Shown in pieces: positions 944-31,576 of a stretch of DNA of 32,000 bases. The notes beneath the pieces are model-generated. The model made no database searches and was not told the DNA's origin. It worked only from the letters and a program-made list of their open reading frames with translations. The stretch is from Thermofilum pendens Hrk 5 (GTDB taxonomy: Archaea; Thermoproteota; Thermoprotei; Thermofilales; Thermofilaceae), in contig NC_008698.1 in assembly GCF_000015225.1 (NCBI RefSeq), positions 1,710,001-1,742,000 on the forward strand. Reading direction: 5' to 3'. Made by a program: the position numbers and the translations under genes. Within the stretch, counting starts at the first letter, position 1. Each line of letters opens with the position of its first letter.

Positions 944-1010
944 GCGCCCGGGTGACGAGGCACGTCGAGCCGAGCGTGCGTGAAGAGATTGGTCTTTGCT
1001 GACGGGCGCC
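944..1010 (+). ncRNA. C/D box sRNA (2'-O-methylation guide), candidate 1
   Basis: Perfect 7-bp terminal stem: GCGCCCG (944-950) pairs with CGGGCGC (1003-1009). C box GUGACGA 952-958, 11-nt guide, D' CCGA 970-973, 6-nt spacer, C' GUGAAGA 980-986, 12-nt guide GAUUGGUCUUUG, D box CUGA 999-1002. The stem/3-nt bulge/GA geometry fits a K-turn, and there is an own TATA box upstream. Confidence 0.6.
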
Positions 1011-4000
1011 TAGACCTTCTCGCCGCGCCTGCGCCGGAGCCTCCGGGCGGCTAGGACCGCCACGGCTAACAGCGCGATGGACGCGTATATAGGCACCTCG
1101 TACCTCAGTATGAAGTCGGAGTACTCTATCAGCTTCTCGTCCCCCTCGGTAGCCCACCTCTCCGAGAGGCTCTTTGCGAGCATCGCCAGTGGGTCTGCCG
1201 CCTTAGCCTTCTCGCGCGACTCCTCGTAGACCTTCAGCGCGCGGGAAAGGCTACCCCACTCCCCCGAGACCACCGCGAGCCTTATGCGTTCCTCGAGGCT
1301 CGCCGGGCTTCCGAGCTCCCTGCTCACGTTGACTGCCTTCAGGTAGAGGGTCGCCGGCACTAGGAAAGCTTTGACCGTGGTTTCGTTGTGCCAGCCGAGG
1401 TACTCCACGGAAAGCCTGAATACCCGTTCGCCCGTCTCCGCCACGGTTACCGAGTACTCGCCGTCGACCTTCACCCTGGCGGGTACGGCGGACCCGTTTG
1501 CAAAGTAAGCCCTGCCCGTCACCGTGCCGTTACCCACTATGGGGGCCCCGTCGAGGGTTCCGAGCACGTTCTCAAGCGCCAGGTTGAGGTAGTCCCAGTA
1601 AATCCTCCTGGAGGCCGTGAAGTTGAGCACGGACACCGTTACTACGGCGGAGCAAGCCTTGTCGAAGCGTAGCGTTAAGGACTGGTTCCCGAGGATCCTC
1701 CTGTACTCGCCCACCCCGCATCCGGCCACGGAGAGGTTCGCGTGGATCGGTAGCTTCGGGTAGACGTACAGCTTTACGTGAACCTCTGCCTGCTCGTTTA
1801 CGAGCACGAAGGGAGGCGCTTCGACGTCGACCCCCTTGACTACCACGTAGAAGAAGGACGCCTCGCTCCCGCCGAACCAGGAGCCTACGCTCAGCGTGTA
1901 CACTCCGGGGGCGCCCGGCTTCAGCTCGAACACGAACGAGGTCCTGTTCAGCGACGTGTCTACCGGAAGCTCTCTCTGCAGGGAGGAGTTCAGCCTGACC
2001 TCCAGGGAGGCTTTGACGACAGCCTCCGTCTCCACGGTTACCCTCACGGTGACGGCGTTGGGTATGAGGACTACCTCGGGCGCAGAGACGTGGACCTTCA
2101 CGGGCGGCATCTCGAGGCGCAACTTGGCGAAGCCGGTGTCCACGTCGAGCGCCTTGACGCCGGCCGGCAGGCTCCGGGTCAGCGTGAAGCTCTCGTTCGA
2201 CAAGACCCTGCCGAGAACCAGGTACTTGTGCGGCCCCGCGACCGCGACCTTAGCCTCCACGATGCTACCGTTCCCAAGTACAGTCCACCTGACCAGGGAG
2301 GCGCTGATGGTCGGGGGTACTACCCTGACCTTTGCGCTCCAGGAGGGGTTCCCGTTGAGCACGAAGAGGTAGACCTCCCTGTCTGAGCGCGACGCGTTAA
2401 CCGTTGCCTCCACGTCCTTGGAGGCTCCGCATGCGAAGTAGGCGCTCCCGATGTCGGAGCCGTTCACCCTCAGGCTCAGCGAGTAACTCACGGGGTACGG
2501 CGGACAGCTACCCTGAGCCGACAGCGAGACGGAGACTCTAGCCGTAAACCAGGACGGCGCCACGAGCTCTGGCTTTGCGGACAGGGACGCCGACGGTGCT
2601 GGTATCGATACCTCCACCACGCCCACGATGTACGTGGAGAGAGGCACAGCCGCCTTCCCGCCGAGCCCGCCTACCTCGACGGTAACCGTTAGGGCGGCTG
2701 GTTGAACCGCGACGTCTACTATCGTCTTGCCGCGCGCCCCGTCGTAGCTAGCCTTTACGACCGAGAGAGACGCTGGGACAACGGAGAAGGGCACGGATAC
2801 CTTGTCGTTGCTCCCCGTGAGTACGTCCACGTAGCCCGTCCCCTGGGCGGGCGCGCCCGTCACCGAGAAGCTCAGCCTAACGGTGTTATCGCCGGGGCTA
2901 AGGCTCAGGGTCTGGCTTAGGCTCTGGAAAGCTAGGGAGCTGTTCACCGGCGGGCGTACCACCAGGGGGAGCGAGAGAGCGACCTGGTTCGGGTTCGACA
3001 CTTTGAGGACGAGGTCCCCGTACCCGCTCGGCGACAGGAAGAGCGGGGTCTGCGTGTATAGAGTAACCGATGGTTTCTGCAGTGCGACGCTCAGCGTGGA
3101 GGAGTAGCCGGAGTACTCCACCGTTAGCTGGACGCTACCCCAGGTAACGTTCGTCAACGTTACGGACGCGTAGCCCGAGGATGCCTGGACGTCTACCCCG
3201 TTTACCCTCACCGTCCCCGTCACGGGTTGACCCGCGTACGTTACGTAGAGCTGGAGGCTGAGCCTGCCGTCCACGGGGTAGAAGGTCCCGCCGGACACCT
3301 TTACCAGGAGCGGCGGCGAGAAGGTTATCGTAACCTGGTAGGTAGCGCTGGAGGTAGACGGGTTGACCAAGGCTAGGAGGAGCGAGGAGTTAGACTCGTA
3401 GAAAGCCTGGTTCAAGGCTATGTTGCTACGCACGTTGCCGGACACGCTCACCGTGACCATGCCGGGCCCCGGTAGCGAGACGCTGTAGTACGATGCGCTG
3501 AGACCGCTGAGAGACACCTGGAAGCTCGTAGATGTGCCGGTAACGGAGACGCTCTGAAAGCTCGGCTTGTAGATGCTTCCGCAGATGGATACGCCCTTGA
3601 CTATCGCTAGGAGGAAGGACACGTAGGTGGAGTCAACCCACGCAGAGTCCACGCTACTACCCGAGACGCTACCGGAAAGGGCTCCCGGAACTGTAGAGGT
3701 CCCGGAAGCGAGCACCCAGTAGTAGAAGGCTCCGTAGGCGTAGCTCTGCCACGCGGAGCCCGAGTAGCTGTAGGGGTTGCTGGAGTAGAGGGAGTTGCTG
3801 AAGTAGTAGGGCTCCCACCCGCAGACACCGCTAAGCTCGCTGGAGATCCCCTCCGCGCTGGCCTCTATGTACCACGGGTAGCTACTCGGCACCGCAGTGT
3901 ACCTGAAGTAGGAGACTTGCGACACGTGAACCATTTCGTGGAAGGCGACATGCCTCAAAGTCGACGAGGTAAGCCCAGGCGCTATCGCGATGTAGTTCAC

Positions 4001-4345
4001 ACAGGAAGAAGTTATCCTGCCCGACGAATCGTAGTAGTACGTCCATCTCACGTATCCTCCCTCCCCGCCAGGCAACTGGGTCACGTTCACGACGTAGAGG
4101 CTACCAGAGCACGGAGGCGCTAGGCTAGCCCCGGAGCCGCTGAGAGCCGAGTACGCCGACTCCAGCTCCGCGGCGACACTCTGCGCGTACGCTACGCCCG
4201 CTCCCGCGGAGTCGTAAACCTCGAAGTGCGTGGAAGTGTATGCAGGCGCGGAGACGGCTACCCGTACCAGCGCCACCAGGAGGACAGCCAGGAAAGCTAC
4301 GAGTAGCCTCGAGCGCGTGCCGCCTAAAAGGGGGTAGCCGCGCAT
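1010..4345 (-). CDS. Large membrane-anchored surface (glyco)protein with N-terminal gluzincin-like metallopeptidase (peptidase MA-like) domain
   Basis: 1111-1116 aa ORF. N-terminal signal/TM (LLVAFLAVLLVALV) and C-terminal TM plus basic tail (IYASIALLAVAVLAARRLRRRRGEKV). HEMVH motif followed 20 aa later by WYIEASAEG (HExxH...E). Long S/T/V-rich beta-type middle with about 18 NxS/T sequons. ATG at 4345 is preferred over TTG at 4360 because the TATA box at 4367-4382 is then about 22-37 nt upstream. Confidence 0.8.
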   Translation of the reverse strand: MRGYPLLGGTRSRLLVAFLAVLLVALVRVAVSAPAYTSTHFEVYDSAGAGVAYAQSVAAELESAYSALSGSGASLAPPCSGSLYVVNVTQLPGGEGGYVRWTYYYDSSGRITSSCVNYIAIAPGLTSSTLRHVAFHEMVHVSQVSYFRYTAVPSSYPWYIEASAEGISSELSGVCGWEPYYFSNSLYSSNPYSYSGSAWQSYAYGAFYYWVLASGTSTVPGALSGSVSGSSVDSAWVDSTYVSFLLAIVKGVSICGSIYKPSFQSVSVTGTSTSFQVSLSGLSASYYSVSLPGPGMVTVSVSGNVRSNIALNQAFYESNSSLLLALVNPSTSSATYQVTITFSPPLLVKVSGGTFYPVDGRLSLQLYVTYAGQPVTGTVRVNGVDVQASSGYASVTLTNVTWGSVQLTVEYSGYSSTLSVALQKPSVTLYTQTPLFLSPSGYGDLVLKVSNPNQVALSLPLVVRPPVNSSLAFQSLSQTLSLSPGDNTVRLSFSVTGAPAQGTGYVDVLTGSNDKVSVPFSVVPASLSVVKASYDGARGKTIVDVAVQPAALTVTVEVGGLGGKAAVPLSTYIVGVVEVSIPAPSASLSAKPELVAPSWFTARVSVSLSAQGSCPPYPVSYSLSLRVNGSDIGSAYFACGASKDVEATVNASRSDREVYLFVLNGNPSWSAKVRVVPPTISASLVRWTVLGNGSIVEAKVAVAGPHKYLVLGRVLSNESFTLTRSLPAGVKALDVDTGFAKLRLEMPPVKVHVSAPEVVLIPNAVTVRVTVETEAVVKASLEVRLNSSLQRELPVDTSLNRTSFVFELKPGAPGVYTLSVGSWFGGSEASFFYVVVKGVDVEAPPFVLVNEQAEVHVKLYVYPKLPIHANLSVAGCGVGEYRRILGNQSLTLRFDKACSAVVTVSVLNFTASRRIYWDYLNLALENVLGTLDGAPIVGNGTVTGRAYFANGSAVPARVKVDGEYSVTVAETGERVFRLSVEYLGWHNETTVKAFLVPATLYLKAVNVSRELGSPASLEERIRLAVVSGEWGSLSRALKVYEESREKAKAADPLAMLAKSLSERWATEGDEKLIEYSDFILRYEVPIYASIALLAVAVLAARRLRRRRGEKV

Positions 4346-4366
4346 AAGTAAGCCTAGCAAATCCCC

Positions 4367-5550: not shown

Positions 5551-6027
5551 CTAGAGTACCTCCTGTATTTCTCCGATGAAGAGGGACTTCGAGAGAACCG
5601 CGAGCTTGTCGAGCCCCCTATGGATGACTACCTTCCCGCAGTCTACTATCCTCAGGACCTTCTCCTCGAAGAGCTTAGTGTCCACCGAGGGGTCGAACAC
5701 GAGCTCGCCGACGCCGAATATGAACAGGGAGCCGTCGACCTTCTCGAGGTCCTCTCTCGATAAAACCAGCCTCCCAACGTGCCTGATGAACACAGGCTTC
5801 CTGCGCTTCTCCACGGCGAGAGCCCTGCCTATAAAGCCCGGGAGATCCCCCTTGAAGCCCGCAAGCTGTGGGCCTGCGTCTAGAAGCGCTAAGAAGACCT
5901 TGAACGCCTGAGACGCCAGGTAGCCAACGCTGACACCCATCCTCTTGGCAGCCCTAGACAGCTCGCCGTAAGCCTCCCCGTCGACCCCCCTCAGCAACAC
6001 GTTCTTCGTGGATGCTTCAGGCACCAA
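5551..6027 (-). CDS. Hypothetical protein with possible N-terminal ribbon-helix-helix fold
   Basis: 158-aa ORF overlapping the upstream gene's end by 11 nt. N-terminal pattern NVLLRGVDGEAYGELSRAAKRMGVSVGYLASQAFKVFL looks like a strand-helix-helix (RHH/Arc-MetJ type). The C-terminal ~100 aa are unrecognised. Confidence 0.55.
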   Translation of the reverse strand: MVPEASTKNVLLRGVDGEAYGELSRAAKRMGVSVGYLASQAFKVFLALLDAGPQLAGFKGDLPGFIGRALAVEKRRKPVFIRHVGRLVLSREDLEKVDGSLFIFGVGELVFDPSVDTKLFEEKVLRIVDCGKVVIHRGLDKLAVLSKSLFIGEIQEVL

Positions 6028-7783
6028 CCCCCACCTCTATCCTCGAGATCCTCTCCTTGAGGCTCCTTATCCTCGAGAGAGCCTCCTCGCTCGCCGGCGA
6101 AGACTGCCTGGAGCCCCGCTTACCGAGAGCTAGCGCGGCGCCGGCGAAGACTACGAGTAGCGCGAGCGGCCACGCAGAGGCAACCCTCCTGGAGGGGGAC
6201 TCGAGCTTCACCCCGGAGACGTCCGGCACGCTTCTCTTCACCTTGATGTACGGCAAGGAGAAGTAGTAGACCTCGCCCATCATCTCCGTTCTTAGCTCTA
6301 CACCCGGCGTCAGGCTTACCGCTACCTGGCTGTAGAACGTCCTGTTGTACTCGTCGAACCCTTCCGGCATCACGCTGGACGAGCCCAGCTTCGAAAGCTT
6401 ACCCAGCGAGGAGTCTATGAGGGAAGCCGCCCTCGCGAGCCCTTCGGACAGAGACCTCAGGTTGTAGGCCGCCTCTCTAAGCATGCTCGACATCAGCCTT
6501 AGCCTCTGGGCCCCCGAGGCGAGGTTCTCGGCCGCCTCAGAGGCCTGCCCCTGGAGCCCCTCTATCTCTGCGAGGATCGATTTGTACCTTTCTAGGAGTC
6601 CTTCGACCTCGCCAAGCTGGTTCCGGGAGACCTCTATCAGGGAGGTAACCGCCGACACGTTCACATAGGCAGAGGAGTTCAGAGCCGCGAGTACCTTCTT
6701 TACCTTTTCATCGGTCAAAGACGCGTTGCGCGAGGCACTGCCCAGCGCTTCCTTCGCCTTAGCCACGAGCTCCGACGCGTTCTGCAACCACGCCGCCGCT
6801 TCTCCTCGGAGGCTCCCAGCCCTTCCCGAGAGGTTCTTTATCTGCTGAGCCGCTGTAAACATGTAGCTCGAAGCCTGCTCCGCCTGCCCCGCCGCCGATT
6901 CCAGCATTGAAGCCTCCTCTCCGAACCCCTTGCTGAGATTGTAGAGAAGGTCCCTCAGTTGCGTCACGTTCTCCTCGAGCTGCGTGAGGTTTCCCAGGTT
7001 TGACTCGAGGAACTTGTACATGAAGGACTTGTACCTCGACATCAGGGCTGCTTGCACGCGCGGGTCGAGTGTCACCGTCACTATCGGTGGGGACACGGCT
7101 ACCTCGCCCCAGGGGTTCTCGCCTCGAATCTCGAAGACCACGCTCAGAGAGTACGAGCCGTTAATCACGGAGCTCCACTGGAAGCTCACCTCGGTCCCGG
7201 ACTCGCGTACGCTCTGGGGGTTCTCGGAGTAGGCTACCGGGTAAAGGTACGCGGGGTCAACGCTCCAGCTGACGGAGATGGGGAGCTGTAGCTTGCTTAG
7301 CAACGGGTCGATAGCCGAAACTGTCAACGTGTACTCGAGAGTCTTAGCCTTGAGGGCTTGCGCCACGCAGTAGCCGCTGGAGCAGTTGAGCTTAAGCGGT
7401 TTTCCGTCGGCGCTCAGCTGGACCGACACGTTGAAGAGGCTCCTGGAGGGAACACTGTACTTTAAACTGTAACCCTTCGTTACGTTGAGGTTTCTCCACG
7501 TAGTTGCGCGTAGATTACCCGTGACCAGCGAGGAAGCCGGGGGCTCCGTGGAGGCCACGTCCCCCTCCTCCGGGTACGCCACGTAGTCCGTGAAGTTCAG
7601 CACGACGTCCCCGTCAAATATGAGCGTGACGGTCGCCGTGGTATTGTAGCTACACCCTGGCACTACGTCCATCTCCCTTACGACTGTCTTCTTGACCCCG
7701 ATAACCGGTTGCGCGTACAAAGCCGGAGCTAGCACGGTTAAGGCTACGAGCACCGCCAATACACGTCTAAGCATGGCATTCAT
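6017..7783 (-). CDS. Type I membrane-anchored extracellular protein: beta-rich N-domain plus long coiled-coil/helical region
   Basis: Signal peptide MNAMLRRVLAVLVALTVLAPALYAQP. About 230 aa beta-rich domain, then about 220 aa Ala/Leu/Ser/Glu-rich heptad-like region with many NxS/T sequons. C-terminal TM (AWPLALLVVFAGAALAL) and a cytoplasmic tail ending IRSLKERISRIEVGVGA. Own TATA box upstream. Confidence 0.8.
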   Translation of the reverse strand: MNAMLRRVLAVLVALTVLAPALYAQPVIGVKKTVVREMDVVPGCSYNTTATVTLIFDGDVVLNFTDYVAYPEEGDVASTEPPASSLVTGNLRATTWRNLNVTKGYSLKYSVPSRSLFNVSVQLSADGKPLKLNCSSGYCVAQALKAKTLEYTLTVSAIDPLLSKLQLPISVSWSVDPAYLYPVAYSENPQSVRESGTEVSFQWSSVINGSYSLSVVFEIRGENPWGEVAVSPPIVTVTLDPRVQAALMSRYKSFMYKFLESNLGNLTQLEENVTQLRDLLYNLSKGFGEEASMLESAAGQAEQASSYMFTAAQQIKNLSGRAGSLRGEAAAWLQNASELVAKAKEALGSASRNASLTDEKVKKVLAALNSSAYVNVSAVTSLIEVSRNQLGEVEGLLERYKSILAEIEGLQGQASEAAENLASGAQRLRLMSSMLREAAYNLRSLSEGLARAASLIDSSLGKLSKLGSSSVMPEGFDEYNRTFYSQVAVSLTPGVELRTEMMGEVYYFSLPYIKVKRSVPDVSGVKLESPSRRVASAWPLALLVVFAGAALALGKRGSRQSSPASEEALSRIRSLKERISRIEVGVGA

Positions 7784-13631: not shown

Positions 13632-14858
13632 ATGGGCGAGCGCGCGGCGGCCACGTGCCTGCAGTGCAGGGGGGCTAAGAGGCTCTGCGGTAAGAGTAGC
13701 TGCCCTGTGCTCGACTTGTGGCTAGCACTCGAGAGGGTCAGGGTTCCGGAGACAAGAGAGATCGACGGTTACTCTCCGCCCACCGTTTTCGTCGGGAGGC
13801 ACGGGTACCCAGAGGTCAGGTTCAGCGTCGGCGTCCCGTCCATCGAGGGAGACCCCGCGCTGTTCGAGGACCAGGAGCGGTGGCTCTCGATGCCCCTACG
13901 CGACGTGATAGGCATGAGGCTCGGGATAGTAAGGGGCGAGGTACGGGTCAAGGTCGACGGTCGGGGGCTCTCGGACGAGGTTAGGCTTGCCGCTCTCTCC
14001 TCTAGGCCCGTCGACGTCGAGATCCTACTGGAGAAAGCCCCCAGGGCGAGGCCACTGGTAGACCTCTTCTCCCCTCCCCTGGGGCCCGCCGGCCCGGCTG
14101 CGAAGATAAGCGTGCTGGGTAACCCGAGCGTGCCCAGGAGCCTGGAGAAAGCCTACTACGACTACGACCTGGGCGCCCGCGAGGCTATATATGCACTCTA
14201 CAGGGAGGGCGTGCCGGTACACTACATCCAGAGGGCTCTATCCGTGGGGGCTCTGGGGCTGGGAGGGCGTAGGAGGATCGTCCCGACTAGGTGGGCTATA
14301 ACAGCCGTGGACTCGACGCTGTCGCAGGAGCTGATCGAAGAGGTTAAGAGGCTGGACTACTTCGACGAGTACCTGTTCTTCGAGAGAAAGTTCTCGGATA
14401 ACACGTTCGTGGCGATAATAGCGCCCGGCGCGTGGAGCTACGAGTGGATAGAGGCGTGGTTCCCGCACACGACGTGGAACCCCTCGGCGAGGCTCGAGGT
14501 CGAGGGGGACTGGGAGGGGTTCAAGGGTAGAACCACGTACGCCTCGCTGGGAGGCTGCTACTACGCCGCCAGGCTTGCAACCGCGGAGTTCATGCTCCGG
14601 GAGAAGAGGCAGGGAACGGCGATACTCCTCCGCGAGATATACGAGGGCTTCTTCCTGCCGATAGGGGTCTGGTTCGTACGGGAAAACGTGAGGGAGCTCT
14701 TCAGGTCCAAGCCGGAGAGGTACGAAAGCCTCGAAGAGGTGCTACGCAGGTTGGAGAAGTCTACGAGGCTACCCCTGGGCACGTGGCTCGCCGCGTCAAC
14801 CCTCCTGAGGAGGCTTTTGAGGCAGAGTAGCATCGAGGCGTACATATGGAGGGGGTAG
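13632..14858 (+). CDS. Archaeal Nre-family DNA repair protein (NreA/NreB-like, COG1602)
   Basis: N-terminal Cys cluster CLQCRGAKRLCGKSSCP typical of Nre_N, about 400 aa in length, and a C-terminal PIP-like box QSSIEAYI(W) five residues from the end, matching the known C-terminal PCNA-interacting motif of NreA. Confidence 0.75.
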   Translation: MGERAAATCLQCRGAKRLCGKSSCPVLDLWLALERVRVPETREIDGYSPPTVFVGRHGYPEVRFSVGVPSIEGDPALFEDQERWLSMPLRDVIGMRLGIVRGEVRVKVDGRGLSDEVRLAALSSRPVDVEILLEKAPRARPLVDLFSPPLGPAGPAAKISVLGNPSVPRSLEKAYYDYDLGAREAIYALYREGVPVHYIQRALSVGALGLGGRRRIVPTRWAITAVDSTLSQELIEEVKRLDYFDEYLFFERKFSDNTFVAIIAPGAWSYEWIEAWFPHTTWNPSARLEVEGDWEGFKGRTTYASLGGCYYAARLATAEFMLREKRQGTAILLREIYEGFFLPIGVWFVRENVRELFRSKPERYESLEEVLRRLEKSTRLPLGTWLAASTLLRRLLRQSSIEAYIWRG

Positions 14859-18631: not shown

Positions 18632-20518
18632 ATGCTCGAAAAGAAGTTCCTCGGGTTACCTCTAGCTTTGCTCGTAGCCTTGTCCGCGGTGGTCGTCGCG
18701 GCGAGCCCGCCTACCGCTCAGCTCAAGGTAATCGGCTCAGCCTGGATACTCGCCCCCGCGGTGGCGCAGACTGAGTCCGGCCTCGTAGGCTCCGCTACCA
18801 ACATCTCGGTATTCGTAACGGAGGGTTGGGGAGACGTCTACGTCTCCACGTACTCCCTGACCCAGGAGGACTTCCAGGGAGCAGCTACGGCCGCCGCGAG
18901 GGTCGTCACGAGGCTCCTCGGGCTTAACTTCTCGCAGTACAACTACTACTTCAAGGTGCAGGGCGACGCCGTGATAGTGGGTGGGCCCAGCGCGGGAGTC
19001 GCCATGGCGGTCGCCGTATACTCGGCGCTCACGGGTAAGCCGATCAACCGAACAGTCTTCGTCACGGGTATGATCTCGCCGGACGGCACCGTCGGCCCGG
19101 TGGGCGGAGTTTTCGAAAAAGCTCAGGCAGTGGCTCAGGCGGGTGCGAAGGTGTTCCTAGTCCCACCCGGGCAAAGCATCGTAACGCAGTACCAGACCGT
19201 CGAGAGGAAGATTGGGCCCTTCAGGCTCTACACGACCCAGCCCGTCACCGTAAACCTGACGGAGTACGCCTACAAGAACTGGCACCTCAGGGTCGTGGAG
19301 ATATCCACCCTCTCCGAAGCTTTACGCTACTTCTTCGGCGTCAGCGTCGCGCGGCCACCGTTAGGGAAGCCTTACCTGAGCGCAGACACGAGGGAAAAGA
19401 TAGCCTCGGTGAAAAGCTCGCTAACCTCGCTGGCGCGGAAAGAGCTCGGCGAGGCTTACTCCTACGTTAACTCCTCGCGGCTAACACAGCTCGGAAAATC
19501 CACGCTGAAGTCTTACCTGGACAGGTACGCGAAGAGCTACCTGGATTCGGCGACGAGGGCGGAGGGCATCTCGTCGATACCCCTCCTCACGTCCAGCATA
19601 GCCGTGTCGAGGTGGATTAAGCTACTGGTAGACTACTACTCTGGCCTGCAACTGGACCAGCAGGTACAAGAGGTCAGCGACAGGCTCTCCCGGCTCGCGG
19701 GCGCGGTCGAGGACTCCGCGCCAAGGAGCATAGGAGAGATCAATGCACTCATACTGGCAACAGACAAGGTGATCCACGCTTTGAAGCTCTTCAACGAGTC
19801 GGCCGCCGCGTGGAGTAGCGACCCGGCGACAGCCCTGCAGAAGCTAGCTTACTCGTCAGCCCTGCTGGACGAGGCAGAGAACTGGCTGAGCGGCATCCCG
19901 AGGGGAGGGGGCATCCAGGCATCTCAAGCGGCGGCAACATACCTCTCGGTGGCAAGAAGCACGTGGCCGTACATATACTCCGTGCTCAGCGAGGCTGGCG
20001 GAGACCTAACTCTCATTGACGCAGCAAGCGCCTATTACCAGATCTCTGCCAGGCTGTACTCCTCCAGGAAGCCTTTGCTAGCGGCGGTGGCCGCCGCTAG
20101 GAGCGTGGCGCTGGCCGAGGCCGCAATGCTCTACTTCCAAGTGCAAGCCTCCGGGAAAGACCCCTACTCCGGGGTATCCCTGGAGAACGCTCTAAGCGTA
20201 GCCTCCGCCACGAGCGACATGCTTGTAACCGTGTACTACATCAATCAGTCCTACGGCGCCGAGCTGAGAGATTCGCTCGCATACCTCAAGCTTGGCTCAC
20301 AACTCGGGCAACTCACCCTGGACCTAGCGCGCGTAAAGCCGGGACAACCGGCGGAAACTCAAAAGACGCCCAGCGCTCCCACCCAGCCGGAGCAACCTCC
20401 CCAGAAACCTAGCCAACCCGGTAAAAGCTTAACGGACTGGCTACAAGAGATCCTCCTGAGAATATCACTATTTATAGAAAGCATCGTAGACTGGTTTAGA
20501 AGGCTACTCGGAAAATAA
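18632..20518 (+). CDS. Secreted/membrane-associated Lon-like S16 serine peptidase (no AAA+ module) with long helical C-terminal domain
   Basis: Signal peptide (LGLPLALLVALSAVVVAASP). Lon proteolytic-domain motifs GGPSAGVAMAVAVYSALTG (catalytic Ser) and PVGGVFEKAQAVAQAGAKVFLVP (catalytic Lys). About 380 aa of unassigned helical region, a P/Q-rich linker (PTQPEQPPQKPSQPG) and a terminal amphipathic helix. Confidence 0.85.
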   Translation: MLEKKFLGLPLALLVALSAVVVAASPPTAQLKVIGSAWILAPAVAQTESGLVGSATNISVFVTEGWGDVYVSTYSLTQEDFQGAATAAARVVTRLLGLNFSQYNYYFKVQGDAVIVGGPSAGVAMAVAVYSALTGKPINRTVFVTGMISPDGTVGPVGGVFEKAQAVAQAGAKVFLVPPGQSIVTQYQTVERKIGPFRLYTTQPVTVNLTEYAYKNWHLRVVEISTLSEALRYFFGVSVARPPLGKPYLSADTREKIASVKSSLTSLARKELGEAYSYVNSSRLTQLGKSTLKSYLDRYAKSYLDSATRAEGISSIPLLTSSIAVSRWIKLLVDYYSGLQLDQQVQEVSDRLSRLAGAVEDSAPRSIGEINALILATDKVIHALKLFNESAAAWSSDPATALQKLAYSSALLDEAENWLSGIPRGGGIQASQAAATYLSVARSTWPYIYSVLSEAGGDLTLIDAASAYYQISARLYSSRKPLLAAVAAARSVALAEAAMLYFQVQASGKDPYSGVSLENALSVASATSDMLVTVYYINQSYGAELRDSLAYLKLGSQLGQLTLDLARVKPGQPAETQKTPSAPTQPEQPPQKPSQPGKSLTDWLQEILLRISLFIESIVDWFRRLLGK

Positions 20519-29079: not shown

Positions 29080-29408
29080 GTAGCTTCCTCCTCCGCGGAG
29101 ACGTCCTTAGGTAGAAGCGAACCGTACAGTTTTTTGAGAAACTCGATCCTAAACTTTACCCTCCTTACACGGAGTCTGCGTAGCTTATCCCAGAAACTCT
29201 CGCCGCCCACGAACACTGTAGCGGTGAACCCGTATATATGTGCGCGCTCAGATACCCCAGGATGCGATCACCAGTCACGTTGGCATGACTTTCATCATCC
29301 GCTTTTCCTACCTTTTCGCGGGCTTAAATACATTCTCTCTTCGATTCCGCAAACCCTCGCGTGATAACAAGGAATATATGCGCGTAACCCCGGTAGGGTT
29401 CAGAGAGG

Positions 29409-30155
29409 ATGCGCGGCGAGAGAGTGCTCGTTAAGCCCTTGGAGGCTGGGTGGGTGCCTGCTTACCTTCGAGGAGTAGCCGTGGTTCTCGTGGGGCTACT
29501 CTCGGCTTTGAAGTACGAGTTCTGGGTTGCCCCTCTAGCCTACCTCGGGGCTGAGGCACTGGCGGTAGGCGGCGTGTCGAGGTTTGAGAGGGTAGCGGTC
29601 GGGGTGTTCTACGCCCTGCTCTCCGCTTTGTGGCTTGCAGGTGTGCAGGCGGCGCCGGCGCTGTCCGGGATAGTGCTTGCCTTCGCGGGGCTTCTCTACC
29701 TAGCGTTGCTGGAAGCCGAGGTTAAGAGCGCTGTCTACGTGCTGACTAGAGACGAGTTGGTCCTGCCTTTCTCGGACGTCGAGAACCTGGTATTCAAGGA
29801 GCGCAGAGTGAGGGTGGGCTCCCGGAAGGTAATCCTCAGGGTTCGAAGGCCGTTCTGGAGCAGGCTCCTAGGAAAACGCTTCGAAGAGGTGGAGGTGGCG
29901 GCGGAGGAGGGTGTGGTGCGGCTCAGAGGGATTCCGGACGGCAACAGAGTGGCGCAACTCATCGAGGAGAGAGCCGGCCGTAGGCGCACCTTGAGGAGCA
30001 CCGCTACCCGCGCGAAGCCCCGGGAACAGCGCGGCAGCCTCCAAGGCTACCTCGGGGTGACCGACGGGAGCCCTGGGAGGCCGGAGGAGCCCCCGAGAAA
30101 GGGTAACAGTGAAATACTCCACAGGAAAAACCTTATCGACGACCTGTTACCCTGA
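29409..30155 (+). CDS. Membrane protein with three to four N-terminal TMs, a PH-like (bPH/YdbS-type) cytoplasmic domain and a disordered basic tail
   Basis: Hydrophobic N-terminal ~100 aa. AVYVLTRDELVL...SRLLGKRFEEVEV...VRLRGIPDGNRVAQLIEE resembles the bacterial PH-domain pattern (Y.LT..RL...), a low-certainty assignment. TATA AATATATG lies about 30 nt upstream. Ends 11 nt before the next gene. Confidence 0.6.
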   Translation: MRGERVLVKPLEAGWVPAYLRGVAVVLVGLLSALKYEFWVAPLAYLGAEALAVGGVSRFERVAVGVFYALLSALWLAGVQAAPALSGIVLAFAGLLYLALLEAEVKSAVYVLTRDELVLPFSDVENLVFKERRVRVGSRKVILRVRRPFWSRLLGKRFEEVEVAAEEGVVRLRGIPDGNRVAQLIEERAGRRRTLRSTATRAKPREQRGSLQGYLGVTDGSPGRPEEPPRKGNSEILHRKNLIDDLLP

Positions 30156-30166
30156 GGTGTAGCTAC

Positions 30167-31576
30167 TTGGCCGGCAGCCTCGACGAGAAGGTTAAGAGTA
30201 TATTCGGCATGGTGGCTATAAACAAGGCCGTTGCGAACAACGTGGCTATTTCCCGCGTGCCTAGGTTCATCTCCGAGTACTTGATAAACTTCAAGTGCGG
30301 GGAGAGCCAGGACGCCGAGTGCGTTTCGAGGTTGTCGAGGTACATAAGCGAGCTCTACCCTGATCCCTCCGACAGGGAGCTCTTCCTGAGCAGGCTGAAG
30401 GAGAGGGGCTCCCTGAAGCTTCTCGACGAGTTCAAGGTTAGGGTAGACCTCAAGAGAAACACGTACCTACTGGAGATCCCCTCTCTGCAGATAGCCGACG
30501 CCTTCGTAAACGAGGATATAGTGAGGGAGAATGCGAGGCTTTTCTCCGGGCTGTGGGGGGTCGGGCTCCTCTACTACAAGCCTGAGCTCTCGAGAAGCAA
30601 GAACAGAACCCCCGTCGTGCTACACGACTACAGGCCCTTCCAGGCGTCCTACGTGGATCTCAAGCTGTTCGTGGAGAGCCGGTCTAAGTTCACGTTCGAG
30701 GAATGGGTAGACCTGCTGGTCACGAGCATAGGGCTAAACCCCAAGGCGTACACGCTTGGGCAGAGGCTACTCCTACTGTCCAGGCTGATCCCCGTCGCGG
30801 AGCCAAACGTGAACATCCTGGAGCTAGGGCCCAGGGCTACGGGTAAGACCTCGCTGTACCGCAACGTGGCCTACTACTCGAGGATCTACGCCGGGGGGAC
30901 TATAACCCCGGCGAGGCTGTTCTTCGACGCCAGGCTATCCGTACCAGGGGACCTGGCGCTACACGACGTGATAGTATTCGACGAGATAAGCCGGGTAAGG
31001 CTTTCGAACCCCGACGAGCTCGTAGCCAAGCTGAAGGACTATATGGTCGACGGCTTCTTCGAGCGCGGAGCCCTCAAGAGAGCCCACAGCACCTGCTCGC
31101 TGGTATTCCTCGGAAACGTCGACGTGGAGAGAATAGCGGACCCGAGCCACATCCTCGAGTACCTTCCAAGCTTCATGAGGGACTCGGCATTCCTGGACAG
31201 AATCCACGGGTTTATCCCCGGGTGGAGGTTGCCGAAGATTATGAGGAGCGAGGAGTCCCTCGCGAGCGGCTACGGGCTAGCCTCAGACTACCTAGCGGAG
31301 GTGTTGCACAGGCTCCGAGACGTAGCCGCCGAGAGCGTGGTAGCCGACCATGTGGAGTTCGTCGGGAAGTACACCATCAGGGACGAGAAAGCCGTGAAGC
31401 GCCTACTCTCGGGAGCCGTGAAGATACTCTTCCCGAACTTCGAGTTCGACAACGCGGAGCTTGCGAGGGTGGCTAGGGGCATAGTAGGGCTTAGAAACAA
31501 CGTGTCTAGACTGCTGACAGCCATCTCGCCCTCCGAGTTCCCCCCGAAAAAGCTCGAAGTAAAGGTTAGAGGGTAA
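30167..31576 (+). CDS. BrxL-like AAA+ ATPase (short ~470-aa form lacking the C-terminal Lon protease domain)
   Basis: Collinear with the BrxL N-terminal/ATPase region as I recall it: LDEKVKSIFG...VPRFISEYLI, Walker A ELGPRATGKTSLY, Walker B VIVFDEISRV, FLDRIHGFIPGWRLPKI, and YGLASDYLAEVL. TTG start preceded by the SD-like GAGGTG 7 nt upstream. 469 aa against about 680 aa for full BrxL. Confidence 0.78.
   Translation: MAGSLDEKVKSIFGMVAINKAVANNVAISRVPRFISEYLINFKCGESQDAECVSRLSRYISELYPDPSDRELFLSRLKERGSLKLLDEFKVRVDLKRNTYLLEIPSLQIADAFVNEDIVRENARLFSGLWGVGLLYYKPELSRSKNRTPVVLHDYRPFQASYVDLKLFVESRSKFTFEEWVDLLVTSIGLNPKAYTLGQRLLLLSRLIPVAEPNVNILELGPRATGKTSLYRNVAYYSRIYAGGTITPARLFFDARLSVPGDLALHDVIVFDEISRVRLSNPDELVAKLKDYMVDGFFERGALKRAHSTCSLVFLGNVDVERIADPSHILEYLPSFMRDSAFLDRIHGFIPGWRLPKIMRSEESLASGYGLASDYLAEVLHRLRDVAAESVVADHVEFVGKYTIRDEKAVKRLLSGAVKILFPNFEFDNAELARVARGIVGLRNNVSRLLTAISPSEFPPKKLEVKVRG

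Follow-up and report, generated by a model that had tools for sequence, protein, structure and literature searches.

A membrane PH-like protein and a short BrxL ATPase form a conserved pair in Thermofilaceae, and a C-terminal peptide may couple BrxL to its upstream partners

Near one end of a 32,000-nucleotide (nt) stretch of the chromosome of the archaeon Thermofilum pendens Hrk 5 (NC_008698.1, positions 1,710,001 to 1,742,000; the whole of this stretch is called the window below), two adjacent genes encode a 248-amino-acid (aa) membrane protein with a PH-like domain and a 469-aa short form of BrxL, an ATPase known from bacteriophage exclusion (BREX) systems. The gene structure, the family assignment and the conservation of the pair are observed directly, as is a statistical and phylogenetic link between BrxL and the short peptide, or tail, with which the membrane protein ends. 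On balance, we lean toward a reading in which the tail couples to BrxL and the membrane protein tethers a single-ring, DNA-encircling ATPase.

The link between the tail and BrxL was examined in 53 BrxL loci from genomes and 80 from metagenomes. The upstream partners of BrxL in these loci include PglZ, BrxC/BrxD-like ATPases, Type IIG restriction-modification (RM) enzymes or fragments of them, a SWIM-finger family, a Sorangium family of ~555 aa and a ~1,100-aa DUF499/HmaC-like family that lies by a DUF1156/HmaB-like adenine methylase. Many of them end in a short hydrophobic-acidic-hydrophobic peptide. The statement, in an earlier reading made from the sequence only, that short BrxL usually follows PglZ is right for bacterial loci but fails in archaea, where the partners are very diverse.

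In a tree of BrxL proteins, the Thermofilaceae clade is sister to the clade with DUF499-like partners and stands next to the clade with SWIM partners. The sister-clade proteins are the closest relatives of T. pendens BrxL (54-56% identical), and these closest relatives are all found in RM-like or defence-like operons. The DUF499/HmaC-like partner, which is unrelated to the membrane protein, ends RS(S)[F/W/I]D[R/K][F/L]LP, also given as ...R-S-x-[I/F/W]-D-[R/K]-[L/F]-L-P, and the SWIM partners end RSWDxΦΦ. The tails of all three unrelated partners fit one pattern, [S/N]-x(0-1)-[W/F/I]-[D/E]-x-[L/I/F]-[L/I/V/F], as can be seen by setting NLIDDLLP and NRIERLL against SPIDRLLPA, SSFDKFLPM, RSWDRLLPS and RSWDDLL. 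Within the last 12 residues, this clade motif, which was defined post hoc, after the data had been seen, is present in 18 of the 1,289 open reading frames (ORFs) of all fetched loci, and 17 of the 18 lie directly upstream of BrxL; of internal 12-residue windows, 0.17% contain the motif. Between the membrane-protein tails (L054/L138) and the DUF499-like tails (P0126-P0150), the likeness may span ~14 residues (VYRARGNLIDELLP versus EYLKAKRSSFDRFLP), which may point to a binding element of greater length or to shared ancestry of the tail-coding segments.

The DUF499-like family also supplies natural knock-outs. A search for homologues located far from BrxL gave one tight family, the tail-less members of which serve as the control. 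Among the 68 members, the tail is kept down to ~36% identity. It is lacking in three lineages (P0153, P0180 and P0189-92), and all three, when inspected, have the same operon without BrxL. For P0189 (L144/L145) and P0180 (L146), the operon consists of the methylase, the DUF499-like protein and two small genes called d1 and d2, and its flanks are homologous to those of the BrxL-containing loci L001/L003; neither a BrxL gene nor a BrxL-like sequence in any frame is found in L144/L145 or L146. P0153 (L147) falls within a group of tail-bearing members, at 49% identity, and ends where the tail would start (VFGEYKLQGA and stop, versus VFGEYLKAKRSSFDRFLPM and stop in tail-bearing members), with d1 coming directly after it. 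The tail-bearing loci that were inspected have BrxL immediately downstream in six of six cases, and 18 further tail-bearing members are apparently on the same contig as a BrxL match. The suggestion made from the sequence only, that the C-terminal peptide could be a docking motif, has thus become the best-supported part of that reading: the tail is conserved, is common to unrelated partners and is lost together with BrxL, a pattern that would suit a docking peptide.

The operon itself can be seen with BrxL at L001:5500-12777, L003:1467-10575 and L057-L059, and without it at L144:4050-11529, L146:1-5971 and L147:694-4797. It encodes the DUF1156/HmaB-like methylase, the ~1,100-aa DUF499/HmaC-like protein, d1 (~250-290 aa) and d2 (~147-177 aa), the last two without Pfam matches; short BrxL, when present, is inserted after the DUF499-like gene. 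No description of BrxL as a component of DUF499-centred (BR/Hma) systems was found in the literature searched.

Within Thermofilaceae, the pair occurs in eight loci from seven lineages of Thermofilum and Infirmifilum, including the complete genomes of Infirmifilum lucidum and Infirmifilum sp. SLHALR2. The sequence-only reading would have been undermined by a lack of conserved pairing in other genomes; here the pairing recurs across the family. An exhaustive HMMER search of 1.84 billion representative sequences returned only four clusters of the membrane protein, all of them tail-bearing, with ends of the form N-[L/R]-I-[D/E]-x-L-L(-P), and every cluster on a long enough contig sits directly upstream of short BrxL. 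In the other direction, BrxL homologues sampled from 72% down to 59% identity have a membrane-protein homologue upstream in four of four cases. The position of the pair is constant (QueT-(DUF4013)-pair-DUF1641), with gaps of 0-12 nt.

The two partners diverge at very different rates: between lineages, identity is 23-34% for the membrane protein, 59-72% for BrxL and 52-64% for QueT. Synonymous sites are saturated in most sequence pairs, and the three or four usable estimates of the ratio of nonsynonymous to synonymous substitution rates (dN/dS) are ~0.25 for the membrane gene (one comparison with unsaturated dS) and ~0.09-0.10 for BrxL, so that both genes, where this can be measured, are kept by selection, the membrane partner much more loosely. 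Against this loose background, the tail is the most conserved stretch of the C-terminal half of the membrane protein and comes after a variable linker. A five-sequence alignment of the family has 15 invariant columns, four of them in the last eight residues (N241, I243, L246 and L247); because L246 is replaced by F in one locus (L138) of the eight-locus alignment, the conserved tail pattern is N-x-I-[D/E]-x-[L/F]-L.

Coordinates of the features described below are collected in Table 1.

Table 1. Features of the membrane protein-BrxL locus (positions in the window)
Feature	Position	Strand	Basis or remark
TATA-like box AATATATG, putative promoter of the two-gene operon	29373-29380	+	~29-36 nt upstream of the ATG; read from the sequence
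Membrane PH-like adaptor gene (proposed role), 248 aa, ATG start	29409-30155	+	ORF call; family restricted to Thermofilaceae
Four predicted hydrophobic helices, residues 12-34, 41-53, 58-76 and 82-107	29442-29729	+	AlphaFold2 (AF2) model, predicted local distance difference test (pLDDT) 79-94
Predicted PH-like beta-sandwich with capping C-terminal helix, residues ~108-198	29730-30002	+	AF2 and Foldseek
Predicted disordered linker, residues ~199-238	30003-30122	+	pLDDT <50 over residues 194-241
C-terminal tail RKNLIDDLLP, proposed BrxL-coupling peptide	30123-30152	+	conservation and association with BrxL
Shine-Dalgarno (SD)-like GAGGTG	30154-30159	+	overlaps the stop codon of the first gene, 7 nt before the TTG
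Short BrxL gene, 469 aa, TTG start	30167-31576	+	ORF call, TIGR02688 type
BrxL_N domain, residues 12-137	30200-30577	+	PF20442, 1.8e-29
Walker A GPRATGKT, residues 221-228	30827-30850	+	P222, T225, G226 and K227 invariant
Walker B VIVFDE, residues 268-273	30968-30985	+	E273 aligns with catalytic E280 of Acinetobacter BrxL

The 248-aa protein has no match in Pfam (threshold E<=1), NCBIfam or PADLOC, and this includes the Pfam bPH profile. Its structure was modelled with AF2 on the basis of four aligned sequences (pLDDT 74, predicted template-modelling score 0.64). A hydropathy scan finds three hydrophobic segments, versus four helices in the model. Lysine and arginine are distributed as the positive-inside rule would have it for a protein with both ends inside (three at the N-terminus, two in loop 54-61, and one and none in loops 35-40 and 77-81), and the predicted N-in/C-in topology of the membrane anchor would thus place the basic PH-like domain and the tail in the cytoplasm. 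In the PH-like region, which carries a charge of about +8 (21 K+R versus 13 D+E), the model has strands within residues 110-177 and a helix at 181-198, with pLDDT 76-88. The best Foldseek match in the PDB is 3DCX, a bacterial PH domain (E 0.013, probability 1.0), and nearly all other top matches are PH domains; the presence of the membrane helices in the query is part of the reason for the weak E-values. With moderate confidence, the model can be said to have a PH fold after the transmembrane helices. The linker that follows differs in length by tens of residues among orthologues and is unalignable.

The assignment of the 469-aa protein is firmer. It matches PF20442 (BrxL_N) at 1.8e-29 and PF13337 (BrxL_ATPase) at 1.3e-107, and the short-BrxL equivalog TIGR02688 at 434.6 bits (cut-off 329.3) over profile positions 1-448 of 449, whereas the long-BrxL profile TIGR02653 reaches 286 bits against a cut-off of 628 and is covered just from position 4 to 452 of 675. 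The protein ends at residue 469, and no Lon_C match in Pfam, nor any C-terminal Lon-like or HKD domain, is present. Its alignment with Acinetobacter BrxL (8EMC, E 1.4e-66) is collinear over residues 34-463 of the latter. The columns K227, D272, E273, N317, R345 and R405 do not vary among 12 diverse BrxL sequences, and K96/R97 align with R104, a DNA-proximal pore residue of 8EMC. Both proteins of the pair are 100% identical to annotated T. pendens products, and the NCBI annotation of the ATPase is already BrxL.

Acinetobacter BrxL holds double-stranded DNA (dsDNA) in its pore, has a dsDNA-stimulated ATPase and an MCM-like AAA+ domain, and has been described also as the E280Q mutant (PMC10164562). 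In the solved structures (8EMC/8EMH), the DNA contacts come entirely from the N-terminal domain (NTD) and the ATPase domain, and the Lon-like C-terminal domain (CTD) pairs two hexamers tail-to-tail (PMC10164562); it follows that a short BrxL should encircle DNA as a single ring. By homology to 8EMC/8EMH, T. pendens BrxL would form an ATP-dependent hexameric or heptameric ring that binds dsDNA, most likely as a single ring around it. The BrxL_N domain is a candidate receptor for the tail.

The two genes are separated by 11 nt. From its sequence and position, the AATATATG box may be the promoter of both, and the GAGGTG element lying over the first stop codon may couple the translation of BrxL to that of the membrane gene. 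Most orthologous loci have comparable A/T-rich boxes at a similar distance, 0-12-nt gaps and (GA)GGTG-like elements. Downstream, the BrxL gene is adjoined by a DUF1641 gene on the minus strand. Profile searches of the ORFs found only housekeeping genes in the 30 kb upstream (transporters, ferredoxins, an RNA methylase, Nre, QueT, DUF4013 and others) and no PglZ, PglX, BrxA/B/C or integrase. An identical longer contig extends ~9.5 kb past the end of the window and encodes DUF1641/HMP, Pyr_redox_2, TusA, DrsE, creatininase and an ABC transporter; PglZ, PglX, BrxA/B/C and integrase were not found there either. The hallmark of BREX of any type, PglZ with BrxC/PglY, is absent from these 30 kb and ~9.5 kb and from the orthologous loci. 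Of the Type-4 BREX set (PAPS-reductase/DUF4007, PglZ, BrxC and short BrxL), the T. pendens locus has only the short BrxL, and a DUF499/HmaC-like ATPase and a DUF1156-type adenine methylase are absent from this locus and its orthologues. A functional tie of the pair to its neighbours QueT or DUF4013 was considered and rejected, because QueT is missing from the L002/L139 version of the locus and is separately spaced.

Most of what the sequence-only reading had said of this locus agrees with these results. The two ORFs, the 11-nt gap, the TATA box and the SD-like GAGGTG lie exactly where it had put them, and the opposite-strand DUF1641 gene is confirmed by a Pfam match. Its claim of no BREX context stands for the 30 kb upstream, and PglZ or PglX just beyond the window, which it named as a possible refutation, does not appear over ~9.5 kb. 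For the ATPase, Pfam, TIGR02688 and the 8EMC alignment all bear out the BrxL N-terminal and ATPase regions, the intact Walker A and B and the missing Lon domain, and the profile searches assign the short BrxL form and not the non-BrxL AAA+ family that would have spoken against it. The transmembrane segments, PH-like domain and basic disordered tail ending NLIDDLLP that had been proposed for the membrane protein are consistent with the four AF2 helices and the Foldseek matches to PH domains.

The following mechanism can be proposed. The product of the first gene would be an integral membrane adaptor, with four helices in N-in/C-in orientation, a basic cytoplasmic PH-like domain and a flexible linker of ~40-120 residues leading to the peptide [R/K]-x-N-x-I-[D/E]-x-[L/F]-L(-P). 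The second product would be a short BrxL with the NTD and the MCM-like AAA+ domain and without the Lon-like domain that joins hexamers. Docking of the terminal peptide on BrxL would leash the ring to the membrane on its cytoplasmic side. DNA-modification or restriction-associated proteins of related archaea end in the same peptide; BrxL may thus be a plug-in motor that is recruited by a C-terminal peptide, and in Thermofilaceae the peptide would have shifted onto a membrane anchor. Most likely, the tethered ring would engage DNA at the membrane, such as the free end of a linear genome, viral or otherwise foreign, that enters the cell, and location and DNA topology would stand in for methylation as the cue that separates self from non-self. 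Physical docking, the stoichiometry of the ring, the membrane topology and the biological role are what we infer here from the observations above.

A wider and more tentative reading would extend this to BrxL-type rings in general, canonical BREX included: each would be recruited by its upstream partner through a short acidic-hydrophobic peptide with which that partner ends, and the Thermofilaceae pair would be a minimal system, so far unrecognised and independent of methylation, in which membrane location determines the DNA that is clamped. The partners would then comprise PglZ, DUF499-like proteins, BrxC/D-like ATPases, Type IIG enzymes, SWIM proteins and the membrane anchor, and the wiring of such systems may be readable from the tail.

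Some bacterial loci also point to a link between tail and BrxL. In Cloacimonadota, tandem BrxC/D-like paralogues have an acidic linker and an ETxLxxΦF tail only in the copy adjacent to BrxL. PglZ type A preceding brxL has an acidic-aromatic tail in seven of seven sampled cases from annotated plasmids of four phyla (E. coli, Acinetobacter, Vibrio, Nostoc, Rhodococcus and Ligilactobacillus, with canonical BREX-1), for example ...AFQDDFF, ...IANDFGDF, ...SDDGWDF and ...VDEFDFFS (L142:1333-3930, L143, L148-L152). PglZ type A without a following brxL was sought in plasmids as a control, and none was found, brxL following in all seven sampled.

Two generic motifs, A and B, were pre-registered and tested on 80 independent metagenome loci. 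Motif A is enriched in raw counts (15/71 versus 15/343, p=1.6e-5). Several results weigh against the proposals above, and they begin with this test: counted by new partner families, the enrichment of motif A is only marginal (2/8, p=0.045), and that of the looser motif B is not significant. A universal tail motif for all BrxL partners was accordingly rejected, and the marginal enrichment by family confines a firm tail link to the Thermoproteota-type clade and the DUF499-like family; its generality beyond these is offered as a hypothesis. The clade motif carries the caveat of its post hoc definition. A separate class of metagenome PglZ (e.g. L097, L110-L112) ends ...TTVGGE(E), yet BrxL follows, and in L004/7, L005, L010, L013 and L048 BrxL is found without a tail-bearing neighbour. 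A C-terminal Strep tag on E. coli BrxZ (PglZ) did not eliminate defence (PMC11842806), and a free C-terminus may therefore be dispensable in E. coli BREX. The PH-like assignment depends on an AF2 model from just four sequences and on Foldseek E-values that are weak. As to function, defence genes do not typically keep a fixed synteny across two genera, and a defence role is speculative because neither a methylase nor a nuclease is present.

These last points lead to the alternative in which tethering is the same but the pair has been domesticated for housekeeping (for example anchoring, segregation, repair or import of chromosomal or environmental DNA at the membrane) and is not antiviral, which we hold possible, if doubtful. 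The fixed QueT-(DUF4013)-pair-DUF1641 position in Thermofilum and Infirmifilum is consistent with vertical inheritance, mobile-element, methylase, nuclease and other defence genes are not nearby, and BrxL is under strong purifying selection (dN/dS about 0.1); a fixed, vertically inherited locus without any other defence gene speaks for domesticated DNA handling with nearly the force of the reasons given for our proposal. Counting the other way are the RM-like or defence-like operons in which all of the closest BrxL relatives sit, the partner's rate of evolution (2.5-6 times that of BrxL, as is common among conflict genes) and the restriction of the membrane family to one archaeal family, which is unexpected for a core DNA-handling role. 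The engagement of DNA at the membrane is favoured because of the first two of these, the setting of the close relatives and the fast evolution of the partner.

Other alternatives would change the meaning of the tail or of the pair. Archaeal PCNA-interacting protein (PIP) boxes have the pattern h-x-x-a-a at the extreme C-terminus, with basic residues before it. The tail has such a pattern after basic residues, and might be a degenerate PIP box on PCNA clients that merely adjoin BrxL. This is improbable: the canonical Q-x-x-[ILMV]-x-x-[FYWL]-[FYWL] occurs in none of eight representative tails, which lack the canonical Gln; three lineages have lost the tail exactly together with BrxL and retained the remainder of the operon; bacterial BrxL partners have analogous acidic-hydrophobic tails, and bacteria are without PCNA; and a membrane protein would be an odd PCNA client. 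A little less probable again is that the tail is a degron-like tag on the membrane protein, a substrate that BrxL would extract or remodel without any role for DNA. AAA+ unfoldases commonly recognise their substrates by C-terminal tags, and BrxL is annotated as Lon-related, but the solved BrxL binds dsDNA in its pore, is stimulated by it and has an MCM-like AAA+ domain (PMC10164562), the short form is without any protease domain, and the same tail is found on large DNA-modification-associated proteins that are implausible as turnover substrates. Least probable of all, and already largely refuted, is that a BREX or BREX-related island has decayed and left the pair behind as an inert remnant, the adjacency being meaningless. 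The absence of all other BREX/BR components from the 30 kb upstream and ~9.5 kb downstream would fit such a remnant, but the ATPase has kept its motifs intact, purifying selection acts on both genes, and two genera share the operon structure, the coupling signals and the tail.

The survey also turned up BrxL loci of other kinds. In Pyrodictiaceae/Desulfurococcales (L004:9947-13027, L007:3894-6977), short BrxL has no tail-bearing upstream gene, and 6 nt after it comes a conserved 541-544-aa protein with no Pfam match and a weak PADLOC CARF_TM match. In several archaeal lineages (L014:6334-11383, L016, L017, L060-L066 and L073), short BrxL directly follows Type IIG genes or TaqI_C-like C-terminal fragments, some of which end ...MDELFG or ...EELEDLFR and others ...PRRRRGLPPGSG. 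The Cloacimonadota loci (L036:6720-11449, L039-L046) encode a ~253-aa protein, BrxC/BrxD-like ATPases of ~400 and ~430 aa and a short BrxL of ~495 aa; no PglZ or methylase was found among the immediately adjacent upstream genes examined, and these may be another compact BrxL-containing system. Typical Type-4 BREX loci (L031:3428-12595, L032-L037) encode BrxC (~1,411 aa), a PglZ-like protein (703 aa), a Cys-rich protein (66 aa), short BrxL (477 aa) and a class-V aminotransferase (cysteine-desulfurase-like); the PglZ-like end, ...INDDILGLP, resembles the T. pendens tail, and a small gene separates this protein from BrxL.

Elsewhere in the window, ORFs of 1,116 aa (1010-4360, minus strand) and 588 aa (6017-7783, minus strand) have no Pfam match at E<=0.001. 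A full-length archaeal Nre (Nre_N and Nre_C; 13632-14858, plus strand) is followed by a radical SAM gene with a 13-nt overlap. The sole Pfam match of a 628-aa protein (18632-20518, plus strand) is a Lon_C proteolytic domain at residues 99-178; its gene is 10 kb upstream of the Lon-less BrxL, and a link between the two was considered but found no support.

The BrxL identity of the ATPase is known from the NCBI annotation. New with respect to the literature searched are the membrane partner, the presence of short BrxL in non-BREX archaeal operons and the BrxL-linked C-terminal peptide; the sequence-only reading had thought the pairing undescribed, and in agreement with this no description of it, or of a BrxL docking peptide, was found in that literature. 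The role of BrxL in BREX and the manner in which it joins the machinery have been called unresolved (PMC13326643, PMC11842806, PMC11974810), and a putative recruitment peptide that appears and disappears with BrxL would bear on how BrxL joins BREX. The Thermofilaceae pair is the simplest natural setting of BrxL, two proteins with no methylase, PglZ or BrxC, and it would represent a defence-system component rewired to a membrane anchor and then fixed in the core genome of a lineage. If the role is defence, discrimination would be by location or DNA topology and not by an epigenetic mark; if it is housekeeping, the pair would be a clear domestication of an immune-system motor in archaea.

Each half of the pair can be compared with known systems. 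Bacterial membrane-anchored PH-domain proteins include those of YdbS/YdbT-type architecture. The T. pendens protein resembles these bPH membrane proteins (3DCX) in its predicted N-terminal transmembrane hairpin(s) followed by a small cytoplasmic PH-like domain, and differs in having four predicted helices in place of the usual two, a long disordered linker, a BrxL-type tail, no Pfam bPH match and a family confined to Thermofilaceae. T. pendens BrxL shares with the BrxL of Type-4 BREX the BrxL_N region (tri-helical and OB) and the MCM-like AAA+ domain without a Lon-like or HKD domain (PMC12839542). Type-4 BREX, however, has BrxC, PglZ, PAPS-reductase/DUF4007 and often a cysteine desulfurase, whereas the partner in T. 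pendens is a membrane protein. With the BrxL of Type-1 BREX (8EMC/8EMH), it is collinear over residues 29-458 and has in common the Walker A and B motifs, basic residues near the pore loops and the DNA-contacting domains, but it lacks the ~200-residue Lon-like CTD of the tail-to-tail double hexamer and is not encoded after PglZ. The operons of DUF1156-type methylase, DUF499 (HmaC)-like protein and short BrxL, which are related to the 'BR' systems (PMC12839542) and to the PADLOC Hma system, contain the closest BrxL relatives and a near-identical tail on the gene upstream of BrxL; there the partner is soluble, ~1,100 aa long and ATPase-like, and the operon also encodes an adenine methylase and two small proteins; the Thermofilaceae locus has none of these. 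By analogy, finally, the tail recalls PIP boxes and PCNA, clamp-binding motifs and the tails of SSB, in which a short hydrophobic/acidic C-terminal motif on a flexible tether is likewise shared by unrelated clients; it differs in having no canonical Gln, and its receptor would be BrxL in place of a sliding clamp.

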